A DNA stretch of 38,887 bases from a virus (IMGVR_UViG_3300032070_000730), one strand, 5' to 3'. Shown: positions 8,946 through 33,457, counted from the stretch's first letter. Made by a program: numbers and translations. The notes: generated by a model not told the origin, from the letters alone.

Positions 8946-9629
8946 ATGGGTTGTTCAAAAAGACAGTCAATAGAAAATTTAGGTATATGTGCCAAAAAAG
9001 AGTTTCATCCGCCAACGGAATTTAAAAGGGGGTGTGTGGCTTGGAATAAGGGCAAAAAGGTAGATTATAATAATTCTAAATGGCTTAAATCCTTTTATCA
9101 AACACATGAGCATTGCAATAAAAGGAAAACACTTGAAGAAATTTGTGGAATAGAAAAAGCCGAAGAAATAAAAGAGAAGTCTCGTTTAAAAAAAGGTAAA
9201 ACTTACGAAGAACTTTATGGTATAGAAAAAGCCAACGAAATAAAGGAAAACATAAAGAAGGGCATCAAAAAATACAGAAAAAATCATCCAGAATGGAAGA
9301 AAAAATGCCTAAAAAGAAGAATCCCATCAAGTTTAGAAATAAAAATGATTGGGTTAATTAAAAAATTTAACTTACCTTATATTTTTGTTGGAAATGGTAA
9401 ATTCTGGATAGAAAATTGCAATCCAGATTTCATAAATTGTAATGGTGAAAAAAATGCCATAGAAGTTTTTAATAGAGAACACAAAGAGAAATTTAGGGGT
9501 GGAATTGATGAATGGAAAGTAAAAAGGGAGAAAATATTTAGAAAATATGGATGGAAAATTTTATTTTTTGATGAAACAGATGTCAATGAGAATATTATTG
9601 AAAAAATAAATATATACGGGGTGAGTTAA
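8946..9629 (+). CDS. homing-type endonuclease (KGKTYEELYG repeats + PD-(D/E)xK-like nuclease)
   Basis: AWNKG; KTLEEICG/KTYEELYG repeats; NPDFIN...AIEVF; GWKILFF. Confidence 0.7.
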   Translation: MGCSKRQSIENLGICAKKEFHPPTEFKRGCVAWNKGKKVDYNNSKWLKSFYQTHEHCNKRKTLEEICGIEKAEEIKEKSRLKKGKTYEELYGIEKANEIKENIKKGIKKYRKNHPEWKKKCLKRRIPSSLEIKMIGLIKKFNLPYIFVGNGKFWIENCNPDFINCNGEKNAIEVFNREHKEKFRGGIDEWKVKREKIFRKYGWKILFFDETDVNENIIEKINIYGVS

Positions 9630-10394
9630 ATTCCAGTCACAGTCGCAACAGAGCCAATTAAGCAACCGAGTATCATCGCCCAAATCGTAGTCCTTCTCGT
9701 TAAGTATTGGCTTATTGTTGTTGGGGTCTTTGCTCTCGCTGTCATCCTCGCTTTCGTCATAATCCTCTGGAAGCGGATGAAAAAAAGAGTAGACCCGTTC
9801 CAAGATATTTATCAAAAGACGAAGGCATTGTGCAAATTTCACAAAAATTCTATCATAAAACATGTCTACATGCTTTCTGACAATAAAATCCAGTATGTGG
9901 GAAAATATCTTGGGGAATGCATCACGCAGGACGGTTATGAAAATATAATGTTCTGGCGTGGGAAGAAATGGTATCTGTTTTGGATTCCTGCTCGTCTCGA
10001 TTTCTTGGATTTGGTAAAAGAGATTTTCATACTCAAATGCAATGTCAATAAAGATTACACCATGAGGGAATATGACCCAGAGACGAAGAAAACAAAAGAG
10101 ACAAAATATGATATAGCGAATGATTTGATTAGTGTTGATGGCGACAAGGTTCTTGTAAAAGGACTTGGGGTTGAAAGGGTAAAAAATTTCCTGTATCCAG
10201 TATTAAGGAATGATAAGGGGAACATCACTGACAAAAAAATGGAGATTTTCGACAGGCAGAGAACTCCAGCACTGATTGATACCATGTTCAGCCAAGTAGA
10301 AGACTTCGCAAACATAAGCAGGGAACTCATAAACATAAATCCTTCGGTCAGATTTAGCGTCAAGACGGGTGAGATACCGCCAAAGAGAGATTAA
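9630..10394 (+). CDS. membrane-anchored protein, probable ATT start
   Basis: Frame is open 49 codons upstream of ATG 9777 and encodes a TM helix; ATT abuts the upstream TAA behind RBS ggggtga. Confidence 0.6.
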   Translation: MPVTVATEPIKQPSIIAQIVVLLVKYWLIVVGVFALAVILAFVIILWKRMKKRVDPFQDIYQKTKALCKFHKNSIIKHVYMLSDNKIQYVGKYLGECITQDGYENIMFWRGKKWYLFWIPARLDFLDLVKEIFILKCNVNKDYTMREYDPETKKTKETKYDIANDLISVDGDKVLVKGLGVERVKNFLYPVLRNDKGNITDKKMEIFDRQRTPALIDTMFSQVEDFANISRELININPSVRFSVKTGEIPPKRD

Positions 10395-13255: not shown

Positions 13256-14092
13256 TTGGTAGATAGTTTTGCATTGAAAGCATTTCCAGTATTGACACAA
13301 ATTTCAGCAGGCGACCTTGAATGGCATGTAGATTAATAATCTTAATTGGTTATTAAGCATAAATCCCGTTCAGGAAGACCAGATAGTAGATAAAATGCAA
13401 CAATCAGAGGCATTCGCAAAATGCATAAGCCTTAATAAAACTCCATTGTTCTTCGAGTTCTTGGATTATAAAACAAGATACAGGGAGAATGTTGGTGTAG
13501 AAGTAAAGGGCGGAAATAAGAATATCTTACCGCATCCCGAACAGGTAAGTCAACTGGCGTAACAGCATTATCAAAATATACATCACATTTGAGTTGCGTT
13601 CCATTTACTTTATGGCATGTATGTGCGAATGAAATAGAATATCTTGAGAAATTGAAGACTCCATCTTTGCCATACGGTTCTGTCTTCCAGATAGATGAGC
13701 AGACCGAAACACATACTGGTGCAGGGTCATATTCGGAAATGCAAGTATTGGAAGATATGTCTAATATCATCGCTAAAAATCAAATTCATACTTTTTGGTG
13801 CATGGAAGAGAATACAGTTATCAAAACATTAAATGGGTTAATTAAAATTAAAGATTTACCAAATCCAGAACCTTTTAGAGTATGGGGCTTTAATTTTGAT
13901 AAAAAAAGACCAGAACTGGATTTAGCAGTAAAAACATATAGCGGGGAAAAAGAGATTTTTAATATAGTAACAGAAACAGGCGAAGAAGTTAAAGCAACAA
14001 GAGAACATAGGTTTTTTATACTTAATGGCAGTAAAATACAAGAAAAGAAAGTAGATGAATTAAGAGTTGGGGATAAATTAGTGATGATATGA
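13256..14092 (+). CDS. P-loop ATPase N-half + N-intein, spliced join(13256-13331,13363-13515,13536-14092)
   Basis: TTG after gaggtga. The spliced product has VEVKGGTRTGKST (Walker A) and VFQIDE (Walker B), then a Hint domain from Cys at 13799. A packaging role is inference. Confidence 0.85.
13332..13362 (+). other. 31-nt BHB/BHL intron
   Basis: Central helix ATGT/GCAT (one G-U), bulges AG|A and AA|A, 9-bp inner stem TTAATAATC/GGTTATTAA (one G-U); 31 nt is exactly the frame shift needed (HVD-PVQ). Confidence 0.75.
13516..13535 (+). other. 20-nt BHB intron inside Walker A
   Basis: GG/CC outer pairs, central helix GCGG/CCGC, bulges AA|A and AT|C, inner stem TAAGA/TCTTA; removal gives GGC GGA ACC CGA ACA GGT AAG TCA. 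Confidence 0.93.
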
Positions 14093-14970
14093 AAAAAATA
14101 TTAAAAAGACCAAAACAATCTGAATTTATGCATAATACCCGTGCTAATCCAGATTCTCCTTATAACAAAAAATCATGTAGAGATAAGATAAGTAAAAATA
14201 CAACAAAACAATGGAAAAATGCATCTATAAGAGAAAAAATGATAGATGGTATTAAAAAAAGTTGGACTAAAGAAAGATGTAATAAAATGAAAGGCGATAA
14301 TAACCCCGCCAAATCATTACAGGCAAGAAATAAAATAAGCCAAAAATTAAGTGGAAAGAAAAAACCAAAATGGTTGATTGAAAATCTTGCTGAAATACAT
14401 AGAGGAAGACCAGTAAAAACAGCAATAAGAGAAAAAATAAGGAAAACACAATTAAAAAAAGCAGATGAATACAGAAAAAGAAAAATATTATTTCATCAAT
14501 TACACCCAGAAAAACATCCAAATATGTTATTAAGAAGAAATCATAAAACGAAAATTGAAGAAATTTTAATAAAAGAATTAAACAATCTTGGTTGTGTAGA
14601 AAAACAACAAATTAAAACATGTAAAAAATTAAAAGATTTTGTATTTAATTTTTACATAAAAACATATAATGGGTTTAGATTTCCAGATATTAACTTTCCT
14701 TTATTAAAAATAATAATAGAATGTGATGGAAATTATTGGCATAAAAATAAAAAATACGAAAGAAACAGGGATTTAGAATTTAAAAATTTAGGATATAAAA
14801 TATTGCATTTTTCTGGTTATGATATTAAAAATAATTTAAATGAGGTAAAAGATGTTGTGAGAACTGAAATAATAAAAAAAATAGAAAGAATTGGTGAAGG
14901 AAAAACATACGATATAACGACACAAAAAAATCATAATTTTATACTTGGAAATGGCATTTTAGCCCATAAT
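13799..14970 (+). mobile_element. split intein: IntN 13799-14092, endonuclease-IntC 14089-14970
   Basis: Starts CMEENT, has block B ATREHRF and ends YDITT..NHNFILGNGILAHN|C; halves are in different frames with an ATGA overlap and RBS-like gtgatga. Confidence 0.85.
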
Positions 14971-15579
14971 TGCCACCCGCATGAATTTGTGGGTCGTAAC
15001 TCCCAAACCATCTAAAGATGGGGGAAATTGGGTCTTGAGTGCTACGGAAAGAACTTTGAGTATAAATTAATCAGATGCATCCTTTATAATATTTCAGTGT
15101 CAACTCTATCAAAAGTTCCAATGGGCATCGTCGTAATTCCTATCGGTTGGCTTTTCAAGTGCGGTCTTTTTGCTGAACCGACGATTTACAATGGAAGAAA
15201 AACTATAATCACCTGTATAAAAGATGTCTGTCCGAGATACGGAAAGTGTCAGGAATTTATGGCACAGTATGAATACAAGAAAGACAATCAGATTGAATTG
15301 ATAAGGACAAGACAATTTGGTGAAAGAGAGTTTAATAGATTAGAAACAGCAGAAAAAATCGCAAAAGACAAGAACTTTCAGATGTGCAGGACAAAAGATG
15401 AAAGGATGTCAATTGCAAGACTTTTAGTTCAATTCGGGACTCCAGAAAAACTGATAGTAGAAAGCGTTGCTCTTGCAAGGGCTATCGATAAAGGAAGGGT
15501 CGATATTGATTCATTGAGGAAACTTGGCGGGAAAAGAACGACAGAAGGAAATGCTGAAGAAGAAAAGGCAGTCACCTAA
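14089..15579 (+). CDS. NUMOD3/DUF559-like endonuclease + C-intein + ATPase C-half, spliced join(14089-15006,15028-15579)
   Basis: RFPDINF..IIIECDGNYWH nuclease; the C-extein CHPHEFVGRNSQ joins LGLECYGK after intron removal. Confidence 0.8.
15007..15027 (+). other. 21-nt BHB intron
   Basis: Central helix TCCC/GGGA, bulges AA|A and AA|T, inner stem CCATC/GATGG; in frame and contains the TAA at 15013-15; outer helix weak. Confidence 0.85.
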
Positions 15580-15596: not shown

Positions 15597-15618
15597 AAAT
15601 TTTAGAAAAATTTAAATA
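15597..15618 (+). promoter_or_regulatory. shared promoter motif heading the X-His array
   Basis: aaattttagaaaaaTTTAAATA, TATA at 15611-15618. Confidence 0.65.
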
Positions 15619-15671
15619 GTTTAGTCTATATATAATTCTTATAGAAAATGCTTTAAAAGAGGTTAGTATAA

Positions 15672-15815
15672 ATGGCACACAAATATTTGAAACATAAGTT
15701 GACTAAACATAGGACTGTCTTCATCCCAGAGGGGTTTGAATTCGTAAAAGCAGAGCCAGACAAAGAACAACCAAACGTCGTAAAAGTTGTCTTTAAAAAA
15801 AGAGGTGCAAAATAA
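15672..15815 (+). CDS. array protein MAHK, 47 aa
   Basis: Hand-translated; RBS gaggt; not in ORF track. Confidence 0.7.
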   Translation: MAHKYLKHKLTKHRTVFIPEGFEFVKAEPDKEQPNVVKVVFKKRGAK

Positions 15816-16148
15816 GTGGTTCATAAATTCCATCTTGGAAGAGAATATGTGACTGAAAGATTCTACCCGCCAGAACTTTTCCATCCAAAAAGTTTCAGAA
15901 CAATAAAAAGCGGTGGATACAAATTTACAATCGGAGTCCCTAAACAGGCTTTAAAAGTAGACGGATATTTGCCATTGTTTAAGGGAAAGAAATTCACAGC
16001 AGGAACAAGAGTTCAAAGGATGCTCCATCCAGTCGGAAAGTTCGAGAGAAAATATCCGAGAATCTGGAAGGAATTGAAAGCATCCAAGACAAAACTTGTA
16101 ACAGCGACACCGACCCATGAGCCAAAATACGGTCTTGTGGCTGGTTGA
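15816..16148 (+). CDS. array protein MVHK, 110 aa
   Basis: GTG start abutting TAA. Confidence 0.75.
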   Translation: MVHKFHLGREYVTERFYPPELFHPKSFRTIKSGGYKFTIGVPKQALKVDGYLPLFKGKKFTAGTRVQRMLHPVGKFERKYPRIWKELKASKTKLVTATPTHEPKYGLVAG

Positions 16149-16190
16149 TTTTATTTTTGAGGGCAGTCGAAATGGGTAGAGGTAATTAGA

Positions 16191-16304
16191 TTGGCACATA
16201 AAATAATTAAAACAGTCACAAAAGATATAGTCCCAGAGGATTACTATCTGATAGATTGGTATAGAAAGAATAAGAAAATGGAATTGGTGTTTGAAAAGGG
16301 ATAA
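16191..16304 (+). CDS. array protein MAHK, 37 aa
   Basis: TTG start after gaggt; not in ORF track. Confidence 0.65.
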   Translation: MAHKIIKTVTKDIVPEDYYLIDWYRKNKKMELVFEKG

Positions 16305-16306
16305 TC

Positions 16307-16564
16307 ATGGTTCATAAGATGAAAACAGTTGGAGATGTATGGGAATTAGAATCGAGTAGTGAGACTGTTGCATCAGATGCATTGAGTAATATTTCTGCAC
16401 AGGCTTTGCACGGCGATAAAAAAATGGTCAATTTTCTTGAAAAGGTCTTTAAAGAAAACTGGAAAGATATCAAGCCAAAACTTGAGACCGAAGGAAGTGT
16501 TTGGTATGTTTGGTGGATGGATGGCGTTCATAGTTTCATGCGTATGCAGATTAAAAAGAGGTAA
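16307..16564 (+). CDS. array protein MVHK, 85 aa
   Basis: ORF with motif. Confidence 0.75.
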   Translation: MVHKMKTVGDVWELESSSETVASDALSNISAQALHGDKKMVNFLEKVFKENWKDIKPKLETEGSVWYVWWMDGVHSFMRMQIKKR

Positions 16565-16568
16565 TTGA

Positions 16569-16706
16569 ATGGTTCATAAAATTGTTCAAACAAAAAAGAA
16601 AAGATGGATAGTCTTCAAGCAAGTCCCAGAGAAAATAGGGAAGTTTGGAGAATGGAAAATCATTGGCAATAAGGCGACCGAAGCGGAAGCAAAAGCACTT
16701 ATTTAA
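16569..16706 (+). CDS. array protein MVHK, 45 aa
   Basis: Hand-translated; not in ORF track. Confidence 0.7.
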   Translation: MVHKIVQTKKKRWIVFKQVPEKIGKFGEWKIIGNKATEAEAKALI

Positions 16707-16720
16707 AGAGGAAGATGAAG

Positions 16721-16945
16721 ATGCATCTCTTCAAGAACATGTTTAAAGACACATACAAAGAAAGCAAGAAAGATTTAGATATGCAAGAAAAAATGAATCT
16801 TGCATTCATCAAAGGATTGCCAAAAACAAGTGGATTAACAGTAAAAGAATTCGGAAGAGAATCAGAAGAGTTTGCAGTGCCAGAAGTCATTCCGACAGAA
16901 AAAATAAAAAAATATAAAAAAAAGATGAAAATTCATGGTTCATAA
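16721..16945 (+). CDS. array protein MHL, 74 aa (alternative start 16715)
   Basis: ATG CAT CTC; ends HGS* inside the next motif. Confidence 0.6.
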   Translation: MHLFKNMFKDTYKESKKDLDMQEKMNLAFIKGLPKTSGLTVKEFGRESEEFAVPEVIPTEKIKKYKKKMKIHGS

Positions 16946-17258
16946 ACAAAAGAAAATGACAGAAGAAGAAAAAGAGTGGGCAAGACGAATGAAAGCATTC
17001 GGAGTAGACATAACAAAAGAATTGACACCAGAGCAAGAATATGAAAGAGAAAAAAAAGAATGGGAAAAAACTGCAAAAGAAGCCACGCAAATGTATGAGA
17101 CAGCACGAAGAATTGCAATCAAAGGAAGGGCAATGTTCAGAAAAGGAAAGAGAATGTTCAAAGAGAGATTCGAGGACAAAAGCAAGAGAAGACCGATAGC
17201 AGTATATGTCAGACCGAAAGATACTGGGAAAAAAGAAATAGTTTATGGTGAGTGGTAA
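16935..17258 (+). CDS. array protein MVHK, 107 aa
   Basis: ORF with motif. Confidence 0.75.
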   Translation: MVHKQKKMTEEEKEWARRMKAFGVDITKELTPEQEYEREKKEWEKTAKEATQMYETARRIAIKGRAMFRKGKRMFKERFEDKSKRRPIAVYVRPKDTGKKEIVYGEW

Positions 17259-17503
17259 TGGTTCACAAATTAAAGGAAGTTTATCGTCTCCAGTGGAGAC
17301 CTGTCAATCCAGATGGGAGTCTTCCAGTCGGAATGAAAGAAGAACAGTGGATTACAGACCCGACATTCAAACATATAAATGAAATGAATGCTTGGGATAA
17401 ATTCATGCAGTCGTCCAACCAAACTATCTATGCAGATATGCGTTTGGTTAAAGATGGAAAAGAAGTTTTTAAAAGATTATGGAAGGACAGAATTAAAAAA
17501 TAA
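17258..17503 (+). CDS. array protein MVHK, 81 aa
   Basis: TAATG overlap; CAC His codon. Confidence 0.75.
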   Translation: MVHKLKEVYRLQWRPVNPDGSLPVGMKEEQWITDPTFKHINEMNAWDKFMQSSNQTIYADMRLVKDGKEVFKRLWKDRIKK

Positions 17504-17515
17504 TGGCGATGATTG

Positions 17516-17884
17516 ATGGTTCATAAAATAAAAAAATCAACTGAAGATATTTGGGAGAAATTAGATAGTTTATATACAGAAGGCATTCCAAAATATTTGA
17601 AAGTAGTCAGCAAGAATAAAATCCAGATAAAAGCAGGAGAATGGGAAGGTGCTCCTGTAAGATGGATTACGGTAACTCCTAAAGATGTCATTGATTATTA
17701 CAGACCAAACAGGCGAATGGGGGCTTCAGAGATTATGAGTGGTGCAAGGACGCTTGCAGGTTTTACTACTGACTGGAGAATGGTTGATAATATGGCGAAA
17801 GAATCTCTTGAGATATTCAAAATTTTGAACAGAAGTGCATTGGAAAAAGAAGGCAAAAAATATGGGATGGAGTTGAAGGATTAA
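17516..17884 (+). CDS. array protein MVHK, 122 aa
   Basis: ORF with motif. Confidence 0.75.
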   Translation: MVHKIKKSTEDIWEKLDSLYTEGIPKYLKVVSKNKIQIKAGEWEGAPVRWITVTPKDVIDYYRPNRRMGASEIMSGARTLAGFTTDWRMVDNMAKESLEIFKILNRSALEKEGKKYGMELKD

Positions 17885-17885
17885 A

Positions 17886-18077
17886 ATGTCACATAAAATA
17901 TATCATGAACATATTAAATTGAACGATGGTAGTGTCCTCTCAATATTTTTTAACACGGAGAATAATCTTCTGGTAGTTGATAAAGTCAGGAAAGACGGGA
18001 CTGGTGGAAATGAATTTATAAGGATGGATGTTTCAGGGATAGAATTGCCATCTAAAAAGGAATTAAAAGGTAATTAA
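17886..18077 (+). CDS. array protein MSHK, 63 aa
   Basis: ORF with variant motif. Confidence 0.7.
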   Translation: MSHKIYHEHIKLNDGSVLSIFFNTENNLLVVDKVRKDGTGGNEFIRMDVSGIELPSKKELKGN

Positions 18078-18551
18078 ATGGTTCATAAGATAAAAAAATC
18101 AAAGAGAAATTTTATAGAATGGGGATTTGATTTAACGCAAGTCAACAGTGATAATGATTTTGTAAGTTTATTGAAAGAATTCGGGTTTAAAGAAGTCAGT
18201 AGCATGAAGCCAGAAGATAAAATAATGTTATCTGGTGGAAAACCAATCGACATGACATTTAAAAGCATGTATGGCGAGAGATTCACTTCTTATCATAATA
18301 CTTTCCAGAGTCCAGAAGGAATAAAAATCAAAGTCGAACACATGGGCGGGAAAAAGAACGGCGACGAAGGTTTTCTGGGTTATATTGGAATAAAAGCACC
18401 AAAATCTGCGATGCAAAAGTTAACAAGTTTTCTTTCAAGATTCAGAGGAAAAGAAGCAATAACTGCAACTGATTGGTCTGGAAGAAAGGGCATAGCAAGA
18501 TATGTGAAAGAAGAATCACCGAATGAGAGTAGATTCATCGGGGTGGAATAA
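18078..18551 (+). CDS. array protein MVHK, 157 aa
   Basis: TAA-ATG junction. Confidence 0.75.
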   Translation: MVHKIKKSKRNFIEWGFDLTQVNSDNDFVSLLKEFGFKEVSSMKPEDKIMLSGGKPIDMTFKSMYGERFTSYHNTFQSPEGIKIKVEHMGGKKNGDEGFLGYIGIKAPKSAMQKLTSFLSRFRGKEAITATDWSGRKGIARYVKEESPNESRFIGVE

Positions 18552-18962
18552 ATGGTTCATAAGATTTGGAAGAGCATAGATGCATGGAGAGGCTATTACA
18601 CTTACGAACCGACAATCGATGATGTAAAAATTGGAAGCGATGACGAGGCTCTTCTAACAGAATGTAATTTTGTTTCCCATGAAGACAATGAAAAGTTTGT
18701 CGATATAACTAAAAAGGCATTGAGAAAGCATTTCAATATAAGGATAAAACACGGGCAAACGAGTAATGTATTTTCTGGAAATGTCATAGTGCTGGCTAAA
18801 CCAAAGGCTGGCGGAAAATGGAATCACGGACTTAAAAAAATAGCAAAGCAGGCGGATGAAATTTTTGTCGATTATTATACTCGTGGTTTTTCGATATTCA
18901 GTGGGACTACGAGTCCGATTGATTTGAAAGAATATAAAGAAAAATTGAATTTGGTGGTTTAA
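18552..18962 (+). CDS. array protein MVHK, 136 aa
   Basis: TAA-ATG junction. Confidence 0.75.
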   Translation: MVHKIWKSIDAWRGYYTYEPTIDDVKIGSDDEALLTECNFVSHEDNEKFVDITKKALRKHFNIRIKHGQTSNVFSGNVIVLAKPKAGGKWNHGLKKIAKQADEIFVDYYTRGFSIFSGTTSPIDLKEYKEKLNLVV

Positions 18963-19133
18963 ATGGTTCATAAGACGCAGGAAACAGATTTGGAAATGAG
19001 TATTGATAATACGATAAAAAAATTGCAGAAACTGCTGAAAAAGAAAAAGAAACAGCAAGAGATAAGTGCATACAATGCTTTGAGGGCTGAAGAAGACCTT
19101 CAAGCGATGTCAAAGGAATATTTGAGGTTTTGA
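18963..19133 (+). CDS. array protein MVHK, 56 aa
   Basis: Hand-translated; not in ORF track. Confidence 0.7.
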   Translation: MVHKTQETDLEMSIDNTIKKLQKLLKKKKKQQEISAYNALRAEEDLQAMSKEYLRF

Positions 19134-19136
19134 TAA

Positions 19137-19415
19137 ATGCACAGGATAAAAAAAACTGATGATATAGAAATATTTGCAGTAATCAAGAAAGTATCATTTA
19201 TGGGCAAGCCTTATTATTTTTTAGCATATCCTCAAGGGAATTTCCTGTTCACAGAATCAGAATTTAAAAAATTGAAGACTGAAAAATTTGGCGAAAACAC
19301 TCATAAGATTACTGTTCCGTATTCAATCAGAGACAAGGGGTATTATAGAAACATTCATTTTATGGATGAACATCCAACATTCGCTAAAAAAATCAGCGAA
19401 TTAAAATTGTGGTGA
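19137..19415 (+). CDS. array protein MHR, 92 aa
   Basis: ORF with M-H variant. Confidence 0.7.
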   Translation: MHRIKKTDDIEIFAVIKKVSFMGKPYYFLAYPQGNFLFTESEFKKLKTEKFGENTHKITVPYSIRDKGYYRNIHFMDEHPTFAKKISELKLW

Positions 19416-19419
19416 TGAA

Positions 19420-19896
19420 ATGGTTCATAAAGTAACATTCATAGTCGGTGAAGGAAGTGGTCTTACAGTCACGACAAGAAAAGGTATTCATAAGACTTAT
19501 AATCATGATATTTGGAAGCAGGTAATGACTTTAGGAGAGAAGAAAGAACCAACATCAAGAGGAATTGAAAATAAGTTCGATGTTAATGATTTGACAACAA
19601 TAATCGCAACTATGGATTACTTCAATGCAAGCGAAAATTGGAAGAAGCAGACTTTCTGGGATTTGAATGTAGCAAAATACAGATTGTTCGACTGGCTCGC
19701 TATGTGTGTGATGGGAAGGAACGATGACAACAGGGAATTGAACAATGAAGCATTGAAAGTCCTTGTTCATTCTTATTTAAAGAGTGAAGGAGACCCGAAA
19801 AAGTTCATAGAGGATTTGAGATATACTGATTATGATGTTGATAGAAGTTGGGAGAAAATCCAAATAGATGTTGAGGAAAAGAAGGGGAAAGAGTAA
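19420..19896 (+). CDS. array protein MVHK, 158 aa
   Basis: RBS ggtga. Confidence 0.75.
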   Translation: MVHKVTFIVGEGSGLTVTTRKGIHKTYNHDIWKQVMTLGEKKEPTSRGIENKFDVNDLTTIIATMDYFNASENWKKQTFWDLNVAKYRLFDWLAMCVMGRNDDNRELNNEALKVLVHSYLKSEGDPKKFIEDLRYTDYDVDRSWEKIQIDVEEKKGKE

Positions 19897-20366
19897 TGGT
19901 TCATACAATAAGTAGACCAGTCCATGAAGGAATAAAACATGGTATTCATAGACATACTGTTGTCGAAGTCATGGGCACGCCGATTTCTTTTGATATAGAA
20001 GAGAGACCATTAACAAAAGAGAATGTCATGTATGTCGCTAATAAAGTTCTGGAAAAAACTCCAGAGATTTCAAAAGCAGTCGGGGAAAATTGGTATCCTG
20101 TCGGTGGTGCTCAATTAGTAGTCGCTGGAAAAAACCCATTGGTAAATCTGATGAAGAAAGAAGGAGTAAGAGACGGAGATTTTTATACACTTGGTAATGT
20201 AAGAATGATGAAAATTGAGAAGGGTTATTGGGTATATTTAAGATATGAAGGTCAGAGTGCGACAGAAGACCAGTCATTAAATTTCAAAGAGCCTTTACAC
20301 AGATTATTTAAATTTGGTCTGGAAGCACTTGGCGTGGAATCGTATGTCAATACTTATATTGATTAG
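19896..20366 (+). CDS. array protein MVHT, 156 aa
   Basis: TAATG overlap. Confidence 0.75.
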   Translation: MVHTISRPVHEGIKHGIHRHTVVEVMGTPISFDIEERPLTKENVMYVANKVLEKTPEISKAVGENWYPVGGAQLVVAGKNPLVNLMKKEGVRDGDFYTLGNVRMMKIEKGYWVYLRYEGQSATEDQSLNFKEPLHRLFKFGLEALGVESYVNTYID

Positions 20367-20375
20367 GTGAGATGA

Positions 20376-20579
20376 ATGGTTCACAGAAAAAAATCAAAAA
20401 TATATACAATTTTTCCAAAATGGAGCACTATTGAAAAAAGAATGGAGAAAACACCAAATAAAATAAAATTTGAAACAGTGGCAAAAGCAAAAAAGTTCTT
20501 GGAACAATTACAAAGTATTCATGACAAATATTCAAGAAGATATTATTGGAGAGAAGGAAAAACGGTTTATAGGGATTAA
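20376..20579 (+). CDS. array protein MVHR, 67 aa
   Basis: RBS aggtga. Confidence 0.7.
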   Translation: MVHRKKSKIYTIFPKWSTIEKRMEKTPNKIKFETVAKAKKFLEQLQSIHDKYSRRYYWREGKTVYRD

Positions 20580-20581
20580 AT

Positions 20582-20830
20582 ATGGTTCACAAATATGCAA
20601 AAAAGGTATTTGATAACAGCACGCTTATTGATAGGACTAAATTTCGTCATGATTTCAAATTTGATATAGATATAAAAGACCCAAGTGATGGCTGGGCATA
20701 TTTTGGTTCTGTAAATTCGATTAAAGAAGCAGAAGACAGGGCAAAAGATTTTAATGATGCAAGGATTGTCGAAGCGACTACAGGAAAAATAGTAAAACAG
20801 ATTACTGGGTATCAGGAGAAGGGATTGTAG
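20582..20830 (+). CDS. array protein MVHK, 82 aa
   Basis: ORF with motif. Confidence 0.75.
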   Translation: MVHKYAKKVFDNSTLIDRTKFRHDFKFDIDIKDPSDGWAYFGSVNSIKEAEDRAKDFNDARIVEATTGKIVKQITGYQEKGL

Positions 20831-20974
20831 ATGCATAAACTAAAAAAGAAAATGAGTTATGAGGATGTGGAAAAATTAGAGAGATTATTCAAGAAAGAAG
20901 TTGGAAGAAAACCAACGACAGTAGAATTAAATTGGATAATAGGCGTGGGTTATTTTAACCCGCTTGAGTGGTGA
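20831..20974 (+). CDS. array protein MHK, 47 aa
   Basis: TAG-ATG junction; not in ORF track. Confidence 0.65.
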   Translation: MHKLKKKMSYEDVEKLERLFKKEVGRKPTTVELNWIIGVGYFNPLEW

Positions 20975-20981
20975 TGAATGA

Positions 20982-21191
20982 ATGCATACAATTAGTGGAA
21001 GTCTTTCAGAAGTCGGCTCTGGAATGGGCGGTCTATTTGGTGGAATGGCTACAGTTCCGATTTCAACTGCGATAATGAAACATGGGGCAGAACCAGTGAA
21101 AGGTGCAATGAAGAGAGCAGGAAAAGAGATTGCGGGGAAGAAAAAAACAAAGAAAAAAGTCGCTAAAAAAGGAAAGAAGAAAAAAAGATGA
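20982..21191 (+). CDS. array protein MHT, 69 aa, with coat-like helix and Lys-rich tail
   Basis: SLSEVGSGMGGLFGGM resembles TLSDIGSGIGSLFTGM of 8548. Confidence 0.7.
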   Translation: MHTISGSLSEVGSGMGGLFGGMATVPISTAIMKHGAEPVKGAMKRAGKEIAGKKKTKKKVAKKGKKKKR

Positions 21192-21195
21192 TTCG

Positions 21196-21360
21196 ATGGT
21201 TCATACTTTGCAAGGAAAAAAGAATCAAATGATTACTGTCAGGGCTGAAGATGGAAAACTCGTCTATGAATTTTGGAGAAAATTAGCCGAAGTGTCAAAG
21301 CCAAAAAATGGAAGCCTTGCACCATCGGCAATCATAAGGAGAGATGATTATGGTTCATAA
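21196..21360 (+). CDS. array protein MVHT, 54 aa
   Basis: Start reassigned to the motif. Confidence 0.7.
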   Translation: MVHTLQGKKNQMITVRAEDGKLVYEFWRKLAEVSKPKNGSLAPSAIIRRDDYGS

Positions 21361-21634
21361 AATTAAGGGGAAATATTTATTCACTTCAGATGCAAGTCAT
21401 GGGTGGATAAAAGTTCCAAGAGAAGAATTAAAGGGACTTGGTATAGAAGATAAAATAACAGGATTTAGTTATCAAAGTTCAGATGGTAAATTTGCATATT
21501 TGGAAGAAGATATGGATGCTACAATCTTTGTTGACGCATTCAAAAAAAGATTTAACAAAGAACCAGAATTTAAATCAAAATCAGTTAATTACAGTTCAAT
21601 TAGAAATCTTCCAAGTTATAAAAAGGGGGTATAA
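21350..21634 (+). CDS. array protein MVHK, 94 aa, with HGW...YLEED motif
   Basis: SDASHGWIKV...AYLEEDMD recalls a small uncharacterised phage/plasmid family (from memory, not searched). Confidence 0.7.
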   Translation: MVHKIKGKYLFTSDASHGWIKVPREELKGLGIEDKITGFSYQSSDGKFAYLEEDMDATIFVDAFKKRFNKEPEFKSKSVNYSSIRNLPSYKKGV

Positions 21635-22221
21635 TGGTTCATAAAGTTGGCGAAGAAATAAAAAAATTCGATTCAGCATTTCCTTCTAATCATAAGGCTG
21701 GTCTTCATACTTTAGATTCTGTTAATGGTGCGAGTAATTGGCTCGATGAGATGGATGCTGAATTTGAAGCAAGAGCAAGAGAAATTGATGAGATAAATGC
21801 AGAACTTGATAAAAGATACAAAGAGCAGGAAGATGAACAAAAAGAATGGGAAGACAGGCAAGAATTGGAAAAACAAAAAATAGACCTTGAAGCACAGAAA
21901 GATGAGATAGAAAGGCAGAGAGATGAAATACATGAATTGAGGACTACTTTATTGCAAAAACAAATAGAAACAAAACCAACTGCAATAGCACCAACTGTTG
22001 TAACACCAAGTATGCCAGATGGTGAAGTCGTGATGGAACTTCCAAGAGGAAAATCAATAACTGAAGAGATAAAAGAAAGAGCACCGAAAATAACTGAAAG
22101 CCTTAAAAAAACAGGAAGGTTGATAGAGTCTATACCAAAAAGATTGTTTCCAGAACCGAAGAAAAAACAAAATCAAGAATGGGAAAAGTTTAAAGAAGGA
22201 AGTAAAATAAGGTGGATTTAA
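21634..22221 (+). CDS. array protein MVHK, 195 aa, acidic coiled coil
   Basis: E/Q/K-rich heptad region. Confidence 0.75.
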   Translation: MVHKVGEEIKKFDSAFPSNHKAGLHTLDSVNGASNWLDEMDAEFEARAREIDEINAELDKRYKEQEDEQKEWEDRQELEKQKIDLEAQKDEIERQRDEIHELRTTLLQKQIETKPTAIAPTVVTPSMPDGEVVMELPRGKSITEEIKERAPKITESLKKTGRLIESIPKRLFPEPKKKQNQEWEKFKEGSKIRWI

Positions 22222-22352
22222 TGGTTCATAAAATGGAATTATTTTCATTGAAAGAAAGAAAAAAAGTGTTCAATGCATTTTGGAGAGCGGAAATAAAAGG
22301 TCATTCATCTATCAATCTGGCAGGCAGTAAATATAAAATAAAGAAAATGTGA
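22221..22352 (+). CDS. array protein MVHK, 43 aa
   Basis: TAATG overlap; not in ORF track. Confidence 0.7.
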   Translation: MVHKMELFSLKERKKVFNAFWRAEIKGHSSINLAGSKYKIKKM

Positions 22353-22356
22353 GGAT

Positions 22357-22494
22357 ATGGTTCATAAAATAAAGTTTGGAGATTGGGGGCAGATATACAA
22401 TCGTAGAGGAGATGCGATAGGAAGGCGAAGATTAATTTTAGGAACTGAAGAATATGAAGAGGAATATTGGGGAAGTCCAAGTGAGGAATGGTAA
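22357..22494 (+). CDS. array protein MVHK, 45 aa
   Basis: RBS gagga; not in ORF track. Confidence 0.7.
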   Translation: MVHKIKFGDWGQIYNRRGDAIGRRRLILGTEEYEEEYWGSPSEEW

Positions 22495-22496
22495 TT

Positions 22497-22706
22497 ATGG
22501 TTCATAAACTACCAACAATAAAATTCAAAAACAAGGAATATATTTATGATTACAGGCTTTCTGAACTCCGAACTGCTGGAGAAAAATCACCAATAAAATT
22601 CATAGCACTTAATAACACCGAAAACGAACTGCTTGATTATGCTATTAAAAATCAGGACAAAAGCCTGATAAAAATAAATATGAAAGATTTGGAGTGGAAG
22701 TTATAG
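22497..22706 (+). CDS. array protein MVHK, 69 aa
   Basis: Start reassigned to the motif. Confidence 0.75.
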   Translation: MVHKLPTIKFKNKEYIYDYRLSELRTAGEKSPIKFIALNNTENELLDYAIKNQDKSLIKINMKDLEWKL

Positions 22707-22918
22707 TGGTTCACAAAGTCGAAGTAGAAAAAAAACCAGAACAAGATTGGATTGTATGGTTCGGTCATTTGATTACTGAAGAGGCTGGTTGGACTCCTGA
22801 ACAGATAACAAAAATGGCGAAAGAAGGAACGATTTCATTCGAGACCTATAAACCAGATTTCATAAAAATAACTGATGTCGATGATAATGTATTACATGGA
22901 GAAATGTTGGGTGAGTAA
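22706..22918 (+). CDS. array protein MVHK, 70 aa
   Basis: TAGTG overlap, GTG start. Confidence 0.7.
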   Translation: MVHKVEVEKKPEQDWIVWFGHLITEEAGWTPEQITKMAKEGTISFETYKPDFIKITDVDDNVLHGEMLGE

Positions 22919-23101
22919 ATGTTCAAAAAAATATTTAATTTATTTAAGAAAGACAAAACAGTAAAATCAAAAAGAGAACTTATAATAGATTTTTTAGGAT
23001 TTGACCCTGTTGAAATGGGGTTAATATCAGAGGAATTTTTTAATTTTAATCAAACAAAATTAAGTGAATTTTTTATTAATGGTGATAAAAATGGTTCATA
23101 A
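22919..23101 (+). CDS. 60-aa ORF inside the array lacking the motif (MFKK)
   Basis: TAA-ATG junction; ends NGS* inside the next motif. Confidence 0.6.
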   Translation: MFKKIFNLFKKDKTVKSKRELIIDFLGFDPVEMGLISEEFFNFNQTKLSEFFINGDKNGS

Positions 23102-23366
23102 ATTGAAAGAACAAATCATGTCACATCTCGAAGAAGACATAAAAGAGGCAGAAGCAGGAATAAAAAAAGACCAAGAACTCATGGCACAATTAAAGAATTT
23201 AGAGAAACCAGCAGAGCAAAAACCAGTAGAAGAAGATGAAGGAGATATAATGGATGATTATGCTGAAACAATGGACGAGTTCATAGATTCGCTTGGTAGT
23301 GCTCATAAAGATGAGCCGAAGACAGACAAAGAGAAAGAAGTAGAAGAGATGCGAGCGTTGGGTTGA
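23091..23366 (+). CDS. array protein MVHK, 91 aa, acidic
   Basis: RBS ggtga. Confidence 0.75.
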   Translation: MVHKLKEQIMSHLEEDIKEAEAGIKKDQELMAQLKNLEKPAEQKPVEEDEGDIMDDYAETMDEFIDSLGSAHKDEPKTDKEKEVEEMRALG

Positions 23367-23367
23367 T

Positions 23368-23500
23368 ATGCATAGAATTCATAAAAATGTGGATTTGGAT
23401 TGAGGGGATTTGAAAGAAAACATGGAAATGTTGCAGAAGATGCTATGACCCAGAGAATCTGCATCCAGATTATTGCTCATGCTTATGTCACGAGAGGTAA
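23368..23500 (+). pseudogene. possibly broken array member: MHRIHKNVDLD* followed by a start-less Cys-rich frame
   Basis: 11-aa ORF 23368-23403; another frame reads KKTWKCCRRCYDPENLHPDYCSCLCHER* to 23500. Confidence 0.3.
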
Positions 23501-23505
23501 TTTGA

Positions 23506-23628
23506 TTGGTTCATAAAATCAAAGAAAAAAATATTATGATGCAAAGACTTACGGAGTATGGATACTCCTTGAAGACTGCGAAACAACTTGCACATCAATT
23601 CATAAGAGGTAAGTTTTATGGTTCATAA
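23506..23628 (+). CDS. array protein MVHK, 40 aa
   Basis: TTG start after gaggt; not in ORF track. Confidence 0.65.
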   Translation: MVHKIKEKNIMMQRLTEYGYSLKTAKQLAHQFIRGKFYGS

Positions 23629-23923
23629 GTGGAAACCGAGCAAGTCAGACATCGAATGGACACTGAATACGGTCAAATCTTTGAAAGTCGGTGGAATCTG
23701 GGGAACTTCATTCGCCAGTTTCAAAAAAGTCTCTGAAAACAAGTTCATCATCGAACAGATAAACCCAGACCCGAAAGTTAATGCTGTTGAAAATATAGAG
23801 AAGGTTGAAAAGGTCTTCAAGACTCTTGGAATTCAACTTGAAGGAAAATATGATTTCATTCTTGCTTCAGCAGTTCCAAAACACGAATTTTTCATCGGTA
23901 TGAAAAAGAAGAAGTTGATTTGA
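23618..23923 (+). CDS. array protein MVHK, 101 aa
   Basis: RBS gaggt. Confidence 0.75.
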   Translation: MVHKWKPSKSDIEWTLNTVKSLKVGGIWGTSFASFKKVSENKFIIEQINPDPKVNAVENIEKVEKVFKTLGIQLEGKYDFILASAVPKHEFFIGMKKKKLI

Positions 23924-24231
23924 TGGTTCACAAGCATGAAGGGAAGAAACTTGCAATGGCTTATAGGATTTATATTAATTTTCCATACGGTGCTTTAAAG
24001 GACAAATGGTTTCCAATGCTCGAACAGAGAAAATTCCTCGATGATATAGAAGGGGATGAATGGATATTGAACAAGAATCCCATGTTGGCAAAGATTGGAA
24101 TGAGGTCAAAGATAGTCTATGAACCAGCAGAGGCTACAGAGATGCTTGAAAGAAAAATGTTTAGAAAACTTGGTTGGGAAAAACAATCGATGAAACGTGG
24201 TCTTCTGGAAAGTATGCTCGTTTTCTATTAG
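23923..24231 (+). CDS. array protein MVHK, 102 aa
   Basis: TGATG overlap. Confidence 0.75.
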   Translation: MVHKHEGKKLAMAYRIYINFPYGALKDKWFPMLEQRKFLDDIEGDEWILNKNPMLAKIGMRSKIVYEPAEATEMLERKMFRKLGWEKQSMKRGLLESMLVFY

Positions 24232-24262
24232 ATATTTAAAAATTGAGTCCCTATTATATATC

Positions 24263-24397
24263 ATGCATTTGATTGAAAAATCGAAAGAGACTTTGAAGGG
24301 TCTGGTAAAAAACGACCCGTTGATAAAAAAGTTTTCTCCTGTAAAGGAAGAGGATGTGTATGCACAAGATAGAGGAAAACCAGCAACAGAACGATAA
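24263..24397 (+). CDS. array protein MHL, 44 aa
   Basis: ATG CAT TTG; no clear RBS. Confidence 0.5.
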   Translation: MHLIEKSKETLKGLVKNDPLIKKFSPVKEEDVYAQDRGKPATER

Positions 24398-24524
24398 TGT
24401 CTTTGTCGAAGGATTGAATGGATGGAAGAGCATTATCTCTAAAGTAAGTGAAATCAGGAAGAAGCCAGAAGCAGAACAGCAACAGCCACAAAAACCACCA
24501 AAGAAAGAGGGGTGGAGTATTTAA
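24360..24524 (+). CDS. array protein MHK, 54 aa
   Basis: RBS gagga; MHKIEENQQQ...; not in ORF track. Confidence 0.65.
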   Translation: MHKIEENQQQNDNVFVEGLNGWKSIISKVSEIRKKPEAEQQQPQKPPKKEGWSI

Positions 24525-26299: not shown

Positions 26300-27178
26300 A
26301 TGAGAAGACTAATCCCAGTGCTATTATTCTTTCTGTTCATAATCCCGAATGCACATGCAACTATAGGCATAGGAATAACCCCAACAAAACTTGAATTATC
26401 TTTCGGGAACGAGGATGAGCAGACAATCAATGCTAAAATTATAAATAGCGGAAACATGAATCTTTATATAAACATAACCTCTAACCTGACGATAATACCA
26501 AGCAAAAATAATTTCATTCTTTCCTCATGTTCATGCAAGAACTATTGCGACATACATGTGGTTGAATGCAGTGCGTTATATCCACCAGAAGATATAACAA
26601 TCAGGGTAAAGAATCCGAAAAAACCAACTATAGAATACATAAGATTTTCTGGTTCTATGGTTGGGGGTAGTGATAACATTATTGCAGTCGGAGTATCAGC
26701 AGAAATGAGATTGAATATATCATACAATGGAAAAGTCCCGACGCAAAAAGATGATGTAAAAAATAATGAAAATACAATCGTCCTTACATCCATACCACCA
26801 ACAAATCTTCCAAAAACAACGACTACACAGCAATCGACAACTACAGTTCAGCCGACTACGGCACAATCAGTAGTTGAGCCATCAGACCAGCAAAAGCCAA
26901 AAAGTGGTGGATTGATTGTCCAAGAAGCAATCGAGAGTATTCCTTTAGGAAAATGGATTGAAGACAATCAACTTCTTGTGGCAACTCCTATATTAATAGC
27001 ATCTGCTTCTATAGGTGGTGTTTTTTTAATAAAAAGAAAGAAGAACAACGAACCACAGAAATTTGATAAAATTCAGCAACTACCTGTCTATGTTGAAACC
27101 ATAGGAAATCCAAGAGTCGGGATGTCATATTCGACCGACCAAGAGCCCATAATAATAGACGAAACGAAGGAAAAGTAA
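26300..27178 (+). CDS. secreted Ig-like protein with Thr-rich stalk and TM, paralogue of 25722
   Basis: IGIGITPTKLE...INSG; TTTQQSTTT stalk; TM followed by KRKK. Confidence 0.55.
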   Translation: MRRLIPVLLFFLFIIPNAHATIGIGITPTKLELSFGNEDEQTINAKIINSGNMNLYINITSNLTIIPSKNNFILSSCSCKNYCDIHVVECSALYPPEDITIRVKNPKKPTIEYIRFSGSMVGGSDNIIAVGVSAEMRLNISYNGKVPTQKDDVKNNENTIVLTSIPPTNLPKTTTTQQSTTTVQPTTAQSVVEPSDQQKPKSGGLIVQEAIESIPLGKWIEDNQLLVATPILIASASIGGVFLIKRKKNNEPQKFDKIQQLPVYVETIGNPRVGMSYSTDQEPIIIDETKEK

Positions 27179-27199
27179 ATTTTTAGAAAATTTTAAATA
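27178..27199 (+). promoter_or_regulatory. shared promoter motif
   Basis: aatttttagaaaatTTTAAATA, 22 nt before ATG 27222. Confidence 0.65.
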
Positions 27200-27221
27200 T
27201 TTTAACATTTAAATATCATTC

Positions 27222-27524: not shown

Positions 27525-28123
27525 ACTTGATGAGAATTATACCATTTATAAAAAACAGTTTCAAATGTTCTTTTAATAGTTTTTTCTGGGACATAATCTC
27601 TAACTAAATCATACAAAACTTTTCGATATATGTGATTTTCAACAAAACCATGATTTTTTCTGTCTATTTTAATAACTTTTTTTCCACCTAATTCTCGTGG
27701 AACAATATGATGTTGAAGAAATTTAGAACTATTTCTTTTTAGTTTTTCTCTATATTCTTTACTATTAAAAACAGAATTTGGGTCTTTCCACAATTCTTTC
27801 ATTCTTTTTGTTCTTGTTTCTCTTAATAAACTAATGTGATATTCATCGAGTTTTCTATGCAAAAACGGATGCGGGTTTTCTTTGAGCCATTTCTTCATTA
27901 TTTCACTATGCAAATTTTTGTATTCTTTTGTATTATATTTGGAATATGGGTCTTTCCATTCTCTAATTTTAGCGATTTTTAATTTTTCCTTCACTTCTGG
28001 TCTTTTTGAGGGGTTGTTATCGCTTGAAAATCTAATCCTTAATTTGTTTTTTATTCCTTTCGCTCTCTTTTTTCCATATATTTCTTCAAGTGTCTTTCCC
28101 TTCCTCTGTCTTCTTTTGTCCAT
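27521..28123 (-). CDS. HNH homing-type endonuclease with KGKTLEEIYG/NPS repeats
   Basis: QHHIVPRELGG...NHGFVENH. Confidence 0.7.
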   Translation of the reverse strand: MDKRRQRKGKTLEEIYGKKRAKGIKNKLRIRFSSDNNPSKRPEVKEKLKIAKIREWKDPYSKYNTKEYKNLHSEIMKKWLKENPHPFLHRKLDEYHISLLRETRTKRMKELWKDPNSVFNSKEYREKLKRNSSKFLQHHIVPRELGGKKVIKIDRKNHGFVENHIYRKVLYDLVRDYVPEKTIKRTFETVFYKWYNSHQV

Positions 28124-28382
28124 TTCGTTCCCTTATTTTATTTAAAAATGTTATTAAGTCATCAAGATATTCGATTTTTAGACTTATTCCTTTTCTACTC
28201 CATCCCTGATAGCGTTCCCCATGAAGAAATTTTCTTATATCGATATATTTGTTTCCTTTGAAATCGGTAACTCTTACAATAATATCTGCTGTCGCTCCAG
28301 TTATCCTTCCAATCTCATTGCCAGATTCTGTCGGCGTTGCTTCCCCTTCCTCAATCTTTGCATCAGCGTATTCATCTTCCAT
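28086..28382 (-). CDS. PC4-like ssDNA-binding protein
   Basis: VRVTDFKGNKYIDIRKF...WSRKGISL matches the PC4 family pattern. Confidence 0.8.
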   Translation of the reverse strand: MEDEYADAKIEEGEATPTESGNEIGRITGATADIIVRVTDFKGNKYIDIRKFLHGERYQGWSRKGISLKIEYLDDLITFLNKIRERNGQKKTEEGKDT

Positions 28383-32902: not shown

Positions 32903-33457
32903 TTAAGCCTTGAGTTTTTCATAGTATCTTTGTTTCTTTTTCCATTTCTTTAACAGAGTTTGACATCGTTTAGTTCTTGTTTCAAATTCTCTGACTTTCT
33001 TCAGGGTCTTTTCATATCTTTCAGTCTTCAGGTTTCTTGGTTCTTTTGGTATAGCACTGATTATCTTTCCATTCTCGAATTTCAATCCATCTTTCAGGTT
33101 CACTTTGAATTCCTTCGCCCAAGCCATTTCAAAATCGCTTATGTTTACCATTTCATCATGGTGCAGTCCTCTATTATGTCCGAGTTCATGAGTGAATATT
33201 TCTGCGAACAGCACACTGTCAAATTCTCTTAATTTCTTTTTGATTTCATTCCCTTCATTGTATTCTACTACTGGTTTCAATACGAACATCCTTATCCAGT
33301 TGCCATTGATAGATGCTAATCCATGAGTCGTGCAAAATCTTTTGCTGTATTCTATTATCACTATCCTGTGGTTATCCATTCCTTCTCTTCTGACGCATTC
33401 ATTCATTAATTTTTGCAGGTCTCTCGTGTTCCATTGCGTATAATTTTTGATTTTCAT
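32903..33457 (-). CDS. zincin-type metalloprotease-like protein
   Basis: HELGHNRGLHH (HExxH plus a third His). Confidence 0.7.
   Translation of the reverse strand: MKIKNYTQWNTRDLQKLMNECVRREGMDNHRIVIIEYSKRFCTTHGLASINGNWIRMFVLKPVVEYNEGNEIKKKLREFDSVLFAEIFTHELGHNRGLHHDEMVNISDFEMAWAKEFKVNLKDGLKFENGKIISAIPKEPRNLKTERYEKTLKKVREFETRTKRCQTLLKKWKKKQRYYEKLKA

Follow-up and report, generated by a model that had tools for sequence, protein, structure and literature searches.

Unrelated small proteins of a virus-like sediment element share a short His-containing N-terminal tag that may serve as an address

Introduction

Why should dozens of unrelated small proteins, encoded side by side in one gene array, begin with nearly the same few residues? 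This question is raised by IMGVR_UViG_3300032070_000730, a stretch of 38,887 nucleotides (called the window below) that represents an uncultivated, virus-like, probably archaeal element from sediment. An initial annotation of this DNA had proposed that 34 proteins encoded between positions 15672 and 24524 share a mature NH2-X-His terminus that sorts or packages them. Here, we analysed this array together with related contigs, gathered via homologues of its 157-aa member at 18078 and by a pattern scan of metagenomes. The comparison shows that the shared start is selected at the amino-acid level, and we tentatively favour the reading that it is an N-terminal tag, exposed by Met excision and read by one partner.

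Results

The array consists of 35 closely packed open reading frames (ORFs) of 11–195 codons on the + strand (15672–24524, Table 1), 34 of which are tagged; the single ORF without the tag, 22919–23101, begins MFKK and was absent from the initial annotation. Gaps from ORF to ORF range from -38 to +139 nt, with most between -11 and +14 nt, and a GGTG/GAGG-type Shine-Dalgarno (SD) sequence lies 5–12 nt upstream in most cases. Our census of starts returned exactly the 24 MVH, 2 MAH, 1 MSH and 7 MH that had been reported, as well as the residues following His (K in 26, T in 3, R in 3 and L in 2), the use of ATG, GTG and TTG as start codons, and the spelling of His as CAT as well as CAC. All 24 MVH starts in the window are written NTG-GTT-CAY, and the overall word is NTG-GTT-CAY-AAR. 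Among the gene starts of the window, no M-(small)-H start was found outside the array; MKH starts occur at 25123 and 25722. Since His makes up 1.4% of residues in the array gene bodies, only about 1 of 34 starts is expected by simple arithmetic to have His at position 2 or 3 by chance.

The claim that the tagged proteins are unrelated to one another held up in an all-against-all BLASTP comparison, which showed no real paralogy (best E = 1e-4, on K/E-rich stretches). The ORFs are coding, because differences to near-identical relatives sit mainly at third codon positions (48 of 77), and several of the proteins have homologues on other contigs. Scans of 20 array proteins against Pfam and of the 10 longest against PHROG gave coiled-coil noise only and no credible match, and a search of a phage collection returned no match.

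We next asked what is conserved at these starts beyond the window. On the related contigs L002–L004, where the orthologue of 18078 shows 44% identity, all but one of 16 consecutive array genes begin M-[T/S/A/P]-H-[A/S/T/K/L/R], with Arg next in 11 of the 15. Codon 2 is ACT, ACG, ACA, TCA, AGT, AGC, GCA or CCA, and the tag Arg is AGA, AGG, CGA or CGT; both Ser and both Arg codon families are thus used, and His is constant. Four tags of L068 read M-G-S-H-[T/K] and one reads M-G-Q-H, shifting the His register, and L073 mixes MTHK and MVHK. In L005, GTT (21 times) and GTG (10 times) are the only codons of the tag Val; GTC and GTA are absent. Across four MVHK lineages, information content is high solely over the 12 nt of ATGGTTCAYAAR, which are the four tag codons; it falls to about 1 bit where the His and Lys codons can wobble, and upstream it is low except for an SD sequence of variable position. 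The variants of the tag word seen among strain contigs are synonymous Lys changes at 16318 and 18089. Each lineage thus has its own tag dialect, all of them keeping His, and the (small)-His-(basic) tag is confined to one gene class.

These comparisons show that the tag is selected at the amino-acid level. The initial annotation had argued for selection on the protein rather than on a DNA word, and had named relatives that keep the word and lose His as evidence that would speak against it; we observed the opposite, L002–L004 having kept His and lost the word. Met aminopeptidases remove Met before V, A, S, T, P and G, and not before H, so that tags of the type found in the window would all mature to X-His and those of L068 to G-S-H. 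The further proposal that all start types converge on His at mature position 2 therefore needs narrowing: it fits the lineages with His at precursor position 3, which have V/A/S/T/P or no residue before His, and fails for the M-G-S/Q-H tags of L068, where His would stand at mature position 3 if Met is removed. M-(bulky)-H heads no array gene among the tags read, and this absence supports a register rule of one small residue before His.

Homologues of the 18078 protein at 44–97% identity are mostly tagged, the exceptions being P0009 and P0010; a third apparent exception, P0006, was dismissed as a miscalled start, with MVHK four codons upstream. Remote homologues begin MTKIEW, MAKW or MALPKR, and in L071, the one case with neighbours read, the remote homologue sits among small genes without His. 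This distribution indicates that the tag is a clade-specific add-on. Metagenome word-pair matches that proved to be relatives were only L029, L034, L048, L049 and L058. Scans of IMG/VR for close relatives with two proteins found nothing, as did a profile scan of genome contigs. Of the IMG/VR word-pair pattern matches, those that we inspected turned out to be tandem repeats, collagen-like or other, that lie in another frame, and the metagenome match L063 was of the same kind.

A common start on many proteins could also be a relic, in which one ancestral 5' end was spread by duplication or 5'-end capture and has no present function. The word is indeed identical in many members of one contig, as such neutral descent would have it. 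Nevertheless, the gene bodies are unrelated, the tag persists across lineages whose orthologues are only 44–60% identical and in which the residues just after it vary freely, and the dialects differ from lineage to lineage with His retained in all. We therefore regard neutral descent as highly improbable.

Alternatively, the first codons or residues might favour initiation, reinitiation or early elongation of translation in a long coupled operon. The genes are tightly coupled, as described above, and A-rich Lys codons after the tag would keep the start unstructured. A signal in the RNA should hold its register, yet His is invariant at codon 2, 3 or 4; moreover, the members that follow long gaps (16191 and 23506) are tagged as well, the array of the distant relative L071 is untagged, and a search of Rfam returned no match. 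A translational optimum is thus very unlikely as the origin of the tag.

The initial annotation had not remarked on the spelling of Val. Tag Val is GTT in 24 of 24 MVH starts of the window, although GTT makes up only 26% of Val codons in the bodies of the same genes, and it is invariant in the tags of L001 as well. We found that eight of the 16 four-base palindromes (AGCT, CCGG, CGCG, CTAG, GATC, GCGC, GGCC and GTAC) have zero copies in the window, where 19–120 copies of each are expected (46.7 for GTAC), and that GGWCC has 0 copies against about 20 expected. L001, L003, L005 and L066 share most of these bans, L005 tolerating GATC (90 copies), and at GTAC and GGWCC L001, L005 and L066 resemble the window. 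In the context ATG-GTN-CAY, GTA makes GTAC and GTC makes GGTCC, so that the two bans leave GTT and GTG as the only usable Val codons, as L005 shows; palindrome bans likewise exclude GCC and GCG for Ala, and GCA is what occurs. The invariance of GTT is thus mostly explained by banned restriction sites. Also, CATATG, CTTAAG, TTCGAA and TACGTA have 0 copies in the 38.9 kb, with about 13 expected of each.

The start word has a second property, which is its place in strain variation. The contigs of related strains form mosaics, gene by gene: L049 (94% identity) ceases to be homologous 13 nt inside the 16569 gene, L048 has only 21335–21624 in common with the array, and L029 has 22707–22877 in common, plus a 37-nt stretch spanning the start word at 20582. 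Homology to these three contigs sets in at -15 to +1 nt of a gene start and ends at +13 or at -10 to -42 nt of the next start. Contigs from four other sediment runs break at 17256, 20587, 21350, 21362, 22508 and 23517, and one strain joint links 17269 to 18982, word to word, with four genes removed. The 12-nt word ATGGTTCAYAAR therefore marks the borders where single-gene cassettes differ between strains. These data locate the cassette ends; that the word catalyses exchange does not follow from them, because in every mosaic selection leaves breaks at gene borders, and alignment programs continue across a shared word.

It might nonetheless be argued that the 12-nt word exists chiefly for recombination, as the site at which cassettes are shuffled, and that the peptide is a tolerated by-product. 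The coincidence of strain borders with the word, the invariance of GTT in the window and L001, and the occurrence in L005 of two clustered haplotypes, GTG-CAT and GTT-CAY, all fit this explanation. The borders, however, are equally those expected in a mosaic of selected genes, and the GTT invariance is largely due to the palindrome bans. In addition, conservation reaches exactly as far as whole codons and loosens precisely at the third bases of the His and Lys codons, the MH and MGSH variants shift the register, and the word has dissolved in L002–L004 (8 second codons, 4 Arg codons) while the peptide was kept, which contradicts a primary role for the DNA. We consider a recombination site quite unlikely to be the reason for the word. 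Apart from the start word with its weak SD sequence, the array contains no repeats, and we found no hairpins and no attC-like or local inverted repeats; promoter-like sites inside the array are not enriched (43 found, 45 expected).

The two word haplotypes of L005 (278–9355) are themselves ordered, CAT following GTG in 10 of 10 cases and mostly CAC following GTT. The GTG-type words form two groups along the contig, a pattern suggestive of blocks that differ in origin.

An AlphaFold2 model of the 18078 family has a predicted local distance difference test score (pLDDT) of 80.7, with residues 1–7 below 50 and the fold beginning at residue 12. In the alignment of this family, the 6–9 residues after the tag vary freely, and between H+3 and H+9 of the tags K occurs more often than any other residue. 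The tag is thus predicted to ride on a disordered, flexible basic arm. With this model as query, Foldseek returned no match in PDB or in the AFDB clusters at E <=0.001.

Signals outside the coding sequence relate the array to structural genes. A promoter-like 27-mer (Table 1) has three matches in the window with <=3 mismatches, where 0 are expected in 100 shuffles. Its 15-nt core, GAAANATTTAAATAG, is also present at L071 56–70, L072 31–45 and L049 1334–1348(-), and precedes the untagged WGFDLT-domain gene of a distant relative. We infer that the 27-mer is an archaeal promoter with TATA and B recognition (BRE) elements. Since it is shared, the array looks like one operon co-regulated with structural genes, and its presence both at the start and after the end of the array explains strain joints that return from array end to start. 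Genes with a coat-like C-terminal domain are immediate neighbours of tagged genes in L005 and L066. The shared element and the adjacency to coat genes are weak hints that the tagged proteins may be linked to the virion. Untagged genes in the L005 array (2579 and 4120) have hydrophobic N-termini resembling signal peptides or transmembrane segments; the tag therefore marks soluble cytoplasmic products.

Three further explanations were discarded. Self-pairing of AUG...CAU or mimicry of the initiator anticodon is ruled out by the frequent use of CAC, a T-loop-like GGTTCRA by an unfit position 58, and a polyprotein cleavage site by differing frames and intervening stops.

Discussion

What, then, could a tag of this kind do? 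We favour the reading that it is a short N-terminal address. Its form would be a free amino end, one small residue (or a retained Met), His and usually Lys or Arg, carried by a flexible basic arm in front of folds that are otherwise unrelated. Met aminopeptidase would expose the X-His end, which one common viral or host partner would read, giving the tagged proteins a shared fate. Our leading guess for this fate is recruitment to the assembling virion, because the array appears to be co-regulated with structural genes; timed turnover or N-terminal modification would be variants. The dialects VHK, [T/S/A/P]-H-x-R and G-S-H would track a co-evolving reader. The near-invariant word ATGGTTCAYAAR would be a consequence of the amino-acid constraint combined with the bans on GTAC and GGWCC, not its cause, and would serve secondarily as in-register microhomology at the borders of cassette swaps. 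By fixing 12 nt at every gene start, the tag would make accessory genes freely shufflable in register.

Taken as a whole chain, this reading falls just short of being probable in our estimation. Somewhat more doubtful is the wider claim of a new viral address, in which an X-His end (usually X-His-Lys), produced by Met excision, gives dozens of proteins of an archaeal virus group a common fate, with dialects that track the reader and shuffling in register. We found no published description of such a tag in the literature. If this claim is true, archaeal viruses would have a new principle by which proteins are sorted or recognised. The accessory (cargo or host-interaction) proteins of these uncultivated viruses would then be recognisable in sequence data by the tag alone, which could also be put to use as a minimal portable tag. 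Protein constraint and restriction-site avoidance would then together create the DNA microhomology that organises gene-by-gene mosaicism.

Several observations weigh against this address. We identified no candidate for the partner, none of the RNA runs contain the sequence, and 34 different proteins (about 2,850 residues) are a lot to load into the particle of an element of about 40 kb. The His register of L068, at mature position 3, would require a co-evolved reader, and the close 18078 homologues P0009 and P0010 lack His (neighbours were read only for the 2-kb contig L065). Also, restriction-site avoidance does not account for the preference of GTT over GTG, with a ratio of 24:0 at the starts of the window and of 38:18 in the gene bodies (by arithmetic, about 1e-4, and about 2e-7 in L001); some nucleotide-level or hitch-hiking effect thus remains behind this bias. 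GTG at codon 2 would set an SD-like GGTG on the start codon, and GGTG away from SD positions is only mildly depleted (18 seen, about 24 expected); avoidance of such SD-like sequences is a possible cause of the bias, as is hitch-hiking during cassette exchange.

The main rival to an address is a metal-binding end, of the form NH2-X-His (GHK-like) or NH2-X-X-His (amino-terminal Cu(II)- and Ni(II)-binding, ATCUN), which would chelate Cu(II) or Ni(II) with the free amine, a backbone amide and the imidazole as ligands and serve metal-bridged docking, N-terminus protection or use of a host nickel pool. Lys follows His in the classic peptides GHK and DAHK, as it does in most of the tags. HypA (Met-His-Glu) and RcnR (Ser-His) have nickel sites at their N-termini and, like ATCUN and GHK-type termini, resemble the tag in having His as the second or third residue of a chain with a free amine (predicted in the case of the tag). 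Chelation would accommodate all dialects: given removal of Met before V/A/S/T/P/G, His would be the second or third residue of the mature chain in each of them. Chelation is also the only hypothesis that tolerates the L068 register shift without an altered reader. Against it, M-K-H, M-E-H and M-L-H, which would retain Met and form ATCUN sites, should be equally suitable, yet they head no array gene among the tags read, and the small residue at position 2, which ATCUN and X-His sites do not require, is left unexplained. There is no significant excess of His near the tag (2.4% against 1.4%, p = 0.17), and only 2 Cys are present in the 34 proteins. Free Cu and Ni would be scarce if the source sediments are sulfidic, as we assume here, there is no apparent need for metal in 34 unrelated proteins, and the known cases are single proteins or peptides rather than dozens of viral proteins. 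Overall, we judge metal binding to be an unlikely purpose of the tag.

An N-terminal address on viral cargo would have a precedent in phage T4, whose capsid targeting sequence (CTS) of about 10 residues loads proteins into the head and is cut by the prohead protease after a conserved Glu. The T4 internal proteins of the IP locus reportedly carry this sequence, in work ascribed to Mullaney & Black and to Repoila et al. Like the array tag, the CTS is a short N-terminus on unrelated, fast-changing small proteins of a variable locus; the array tag differs in having 2–4 residues and 34 members as opposed to a handful. A CTS-type protease site (L/I-x-E) is not apparent: within H+1 to H+13 of 168 tags, we found no conserved Glu or hydrophobic-x-Glu, only richness in K.

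Outside viruses, the motifs that bind inhibitor of apoptosis proteins (IAPs; A-V-P-I type, in Reaper/Hid/Grim/Smac), N-degrons and the X-Pro-Lys substrates of NTMT1 are N-terminal motifs exposed by Met removal or cleavage. They share with the tag a free alpha-amine and 2–4 residues on unrelated proteins, the motifs of these systems being read by one pocket, as well as a residue 2 that permits Met removal; a basic third position is found as in X-Pro-Lys. Unlike the tag, these systems are eukaryotic and cellular, whereas the carriers of the tag all lie in one viral operon and their mature residue 2 would be His, not Pro or Val. In the window, mature position 2 is predicted to be His throughout, with Lys at position 3 in 26 of 34, and we found no NTMT-like gene, ORF 37041–37772 giving only a sub-threshold match to the spermine-synthase fold.

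At the DNA level, the start word recalls the promoter-early stem-loop (PeSL) cassettes of T4-type phages, which Arbiol et al. 2010 are said to have described, and lambdoid boundary sequences. PeSL elements are likewise short repeats that border ORFan genes, and they lie in a hyperplastic region where relatives form mosaics gene by gene. They differ in being intergenic and about 50–70 bp long and in containing a promoter and a hairpin, whereas the array repeat has 12 nt, is coding and follows codon degeneracy; the array word is accompanied by no intergenic repeat, promoter or stem-loop. An integron is not indicated either, as the array lacks attC-like inverted repeats and no integrase domain was found in the ORFs scanned. 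Hence the CTS, the N-terminal motif systems, ATCUN termini and PeSL each fail on defining features as a match for the array tag.

Additional features of the element

Coordinates of the array ORFs and of the promoter-like elements are given in Table 1.

Table 1 Array ORFs, with their first residues and lengths, and copies of the promoter-like 27-mer in the window
Coordinates	Strand	Feature	Remarks
15597..15623	+	Promoter-like 27-mer with TTTAAATA box	49 nt before first array gene
15672..15815	+	MAHK, 47 aa	98% identical in L049
15816..16148	+	MVHK, GTG start, 110 aa	Homologue in L001
16191..16304	+	MAHK, TTG start, 37 aa	
16307..16564	+	MVHK, 85 aa	
16569..16706	+	MVHK, 45 aa	L049 homology stops 13 nt past start
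16721..16945	+	MHL, 74 aa	L066 homologue begins MSHK
16935..17258	+	MVHK, 107 aa	
17258..17503	+	MVHK, 81 aa	
17516..17884	+	MVHK, 122 aa	
17886..18077	+	MSHK, 63 aa	
18078..18551	+	MVHK, 157 aa, WGFDLT-domain family	Most widespread member; residues 1-7 predicted disordered
18552..18962	+	MVHK, 136 aa	
18963..19133	+	MVHK, 56 aa	
19137..19415	+	MHR, 92 aa	
19420..19896	+	MVHK, 158 aa	
19896..20366	+	MVHT, 156 aa	
20376..20579	+	MVHR, 67 aa	
20582..20830	+	MVHK, 82 aa	
20831..20974	+	MHK, 47 aa	
20982..21191	+	MHT, 69 aa	Gly-rich hydrophobic stretch, poly-Lys tail
21196..21360	+	MVHT, 54 aa	
21350..21634	+	MVHK, 94 aa	Single cassette common to L048
21634..22221	+	MVHK, 195 aa	Coiled-coil-like
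22221..22352	+	MVHK, 43 aa	
22357..22494	+	MVHK, 45 aa	
22497..22706	+	MVHK, 69 aa	
22706..22918	+	MVHK, GTG start, 70 aa	Cassette common to L029
22919..23101	+	MFKK, 60 aa	Untagged
23091..23366	+	MVHK, 91 aa	
23368..23403	+	MHR, mini-ORF, 11 codons	Inside 139-nt gap; possibly decayed member
23506..23628	+	MVHK, TTG start, 40 aa	
23618..23923	+	MVHK, 101 aa	
23923..24231	+	MVHK, 102 aa	
24263..24397	+	MHL, 44 aa	Without clear SD sequence; weakest call
24360..24524	+	MHK, 54 aa	
24559..24585	+	Promoter-like 27-mer, second copy	Before signal-peptide protein operon (24621 onward)
27178..27204	+	Promoter-like 27-mer, third copy	Before coat-like membrane protein at 27222

Within the array, the TAA in CATAAA of the start word is read in another frame as the stop codon of the preceding gene (ends 16945, 21360, 23101 and 23628), which accounts for recurrent 11-nt overlaps and for upstream C-termini ending in Gly-Ser. 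The 34 array ORFs of at least 37 aa, a set that leaves out the 11-codon mini-ORF, encode only 2 Cys among 2,853 residues. Non-ATG triplets where ATG is expected were observed at L001 ~8596 and at L075 ~1475 and ~2768, where ATA or TTA gives I-V-H-K, I-V-H-I and L-V-H-K; these are either non-canonical starts or decaying members in which the tag is internal via an upstream ATG.

In L006 (IMGVR_UViG_3300047476_002081, a distant T4-portal-type virus), the gene that immediately follows the portal gene (9545–10315) encodes a 256-aa protein whose C-terminal part is the WGFDLT domain of the 18078 family; this position hints weakly at an association with the head.

The element contains inteins with LAGLIDADG or Vsr-type nucleases. 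Together, the TATA-like promoter, SD usage, inteins and palindrome bans are what would suit a sediment-derived virus or plasmid of archaea. L049, whose flanks are 92–94% identical, lacks 13801–15025 (intein and nuclease) and has 32 nt there instead; conversely, the window has 25 nt (13516–13540) at the Walker-A site of the ATPase where L049 has about 1.1 kb. These differences show that mobile insertions in the ATPase gene are polymorphic between strains. An atlas search with the C-terminal half of the ATPase returned nothing informative.

On the - strand, the 184-aa product of 32903–33457 contains the metzincin-type motif HELGHNRGLHH (HExxHxxGxxH) and matches Reprolysin_3 below threshold, which makes it a candidate small zinc peptidase; no homologue was found in the partial related contigs. 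Also on the - strand, 28086–28382 encodes a PC4-like single-stranded-DNA-binding domain (PF02229, E = 1.8e-8).

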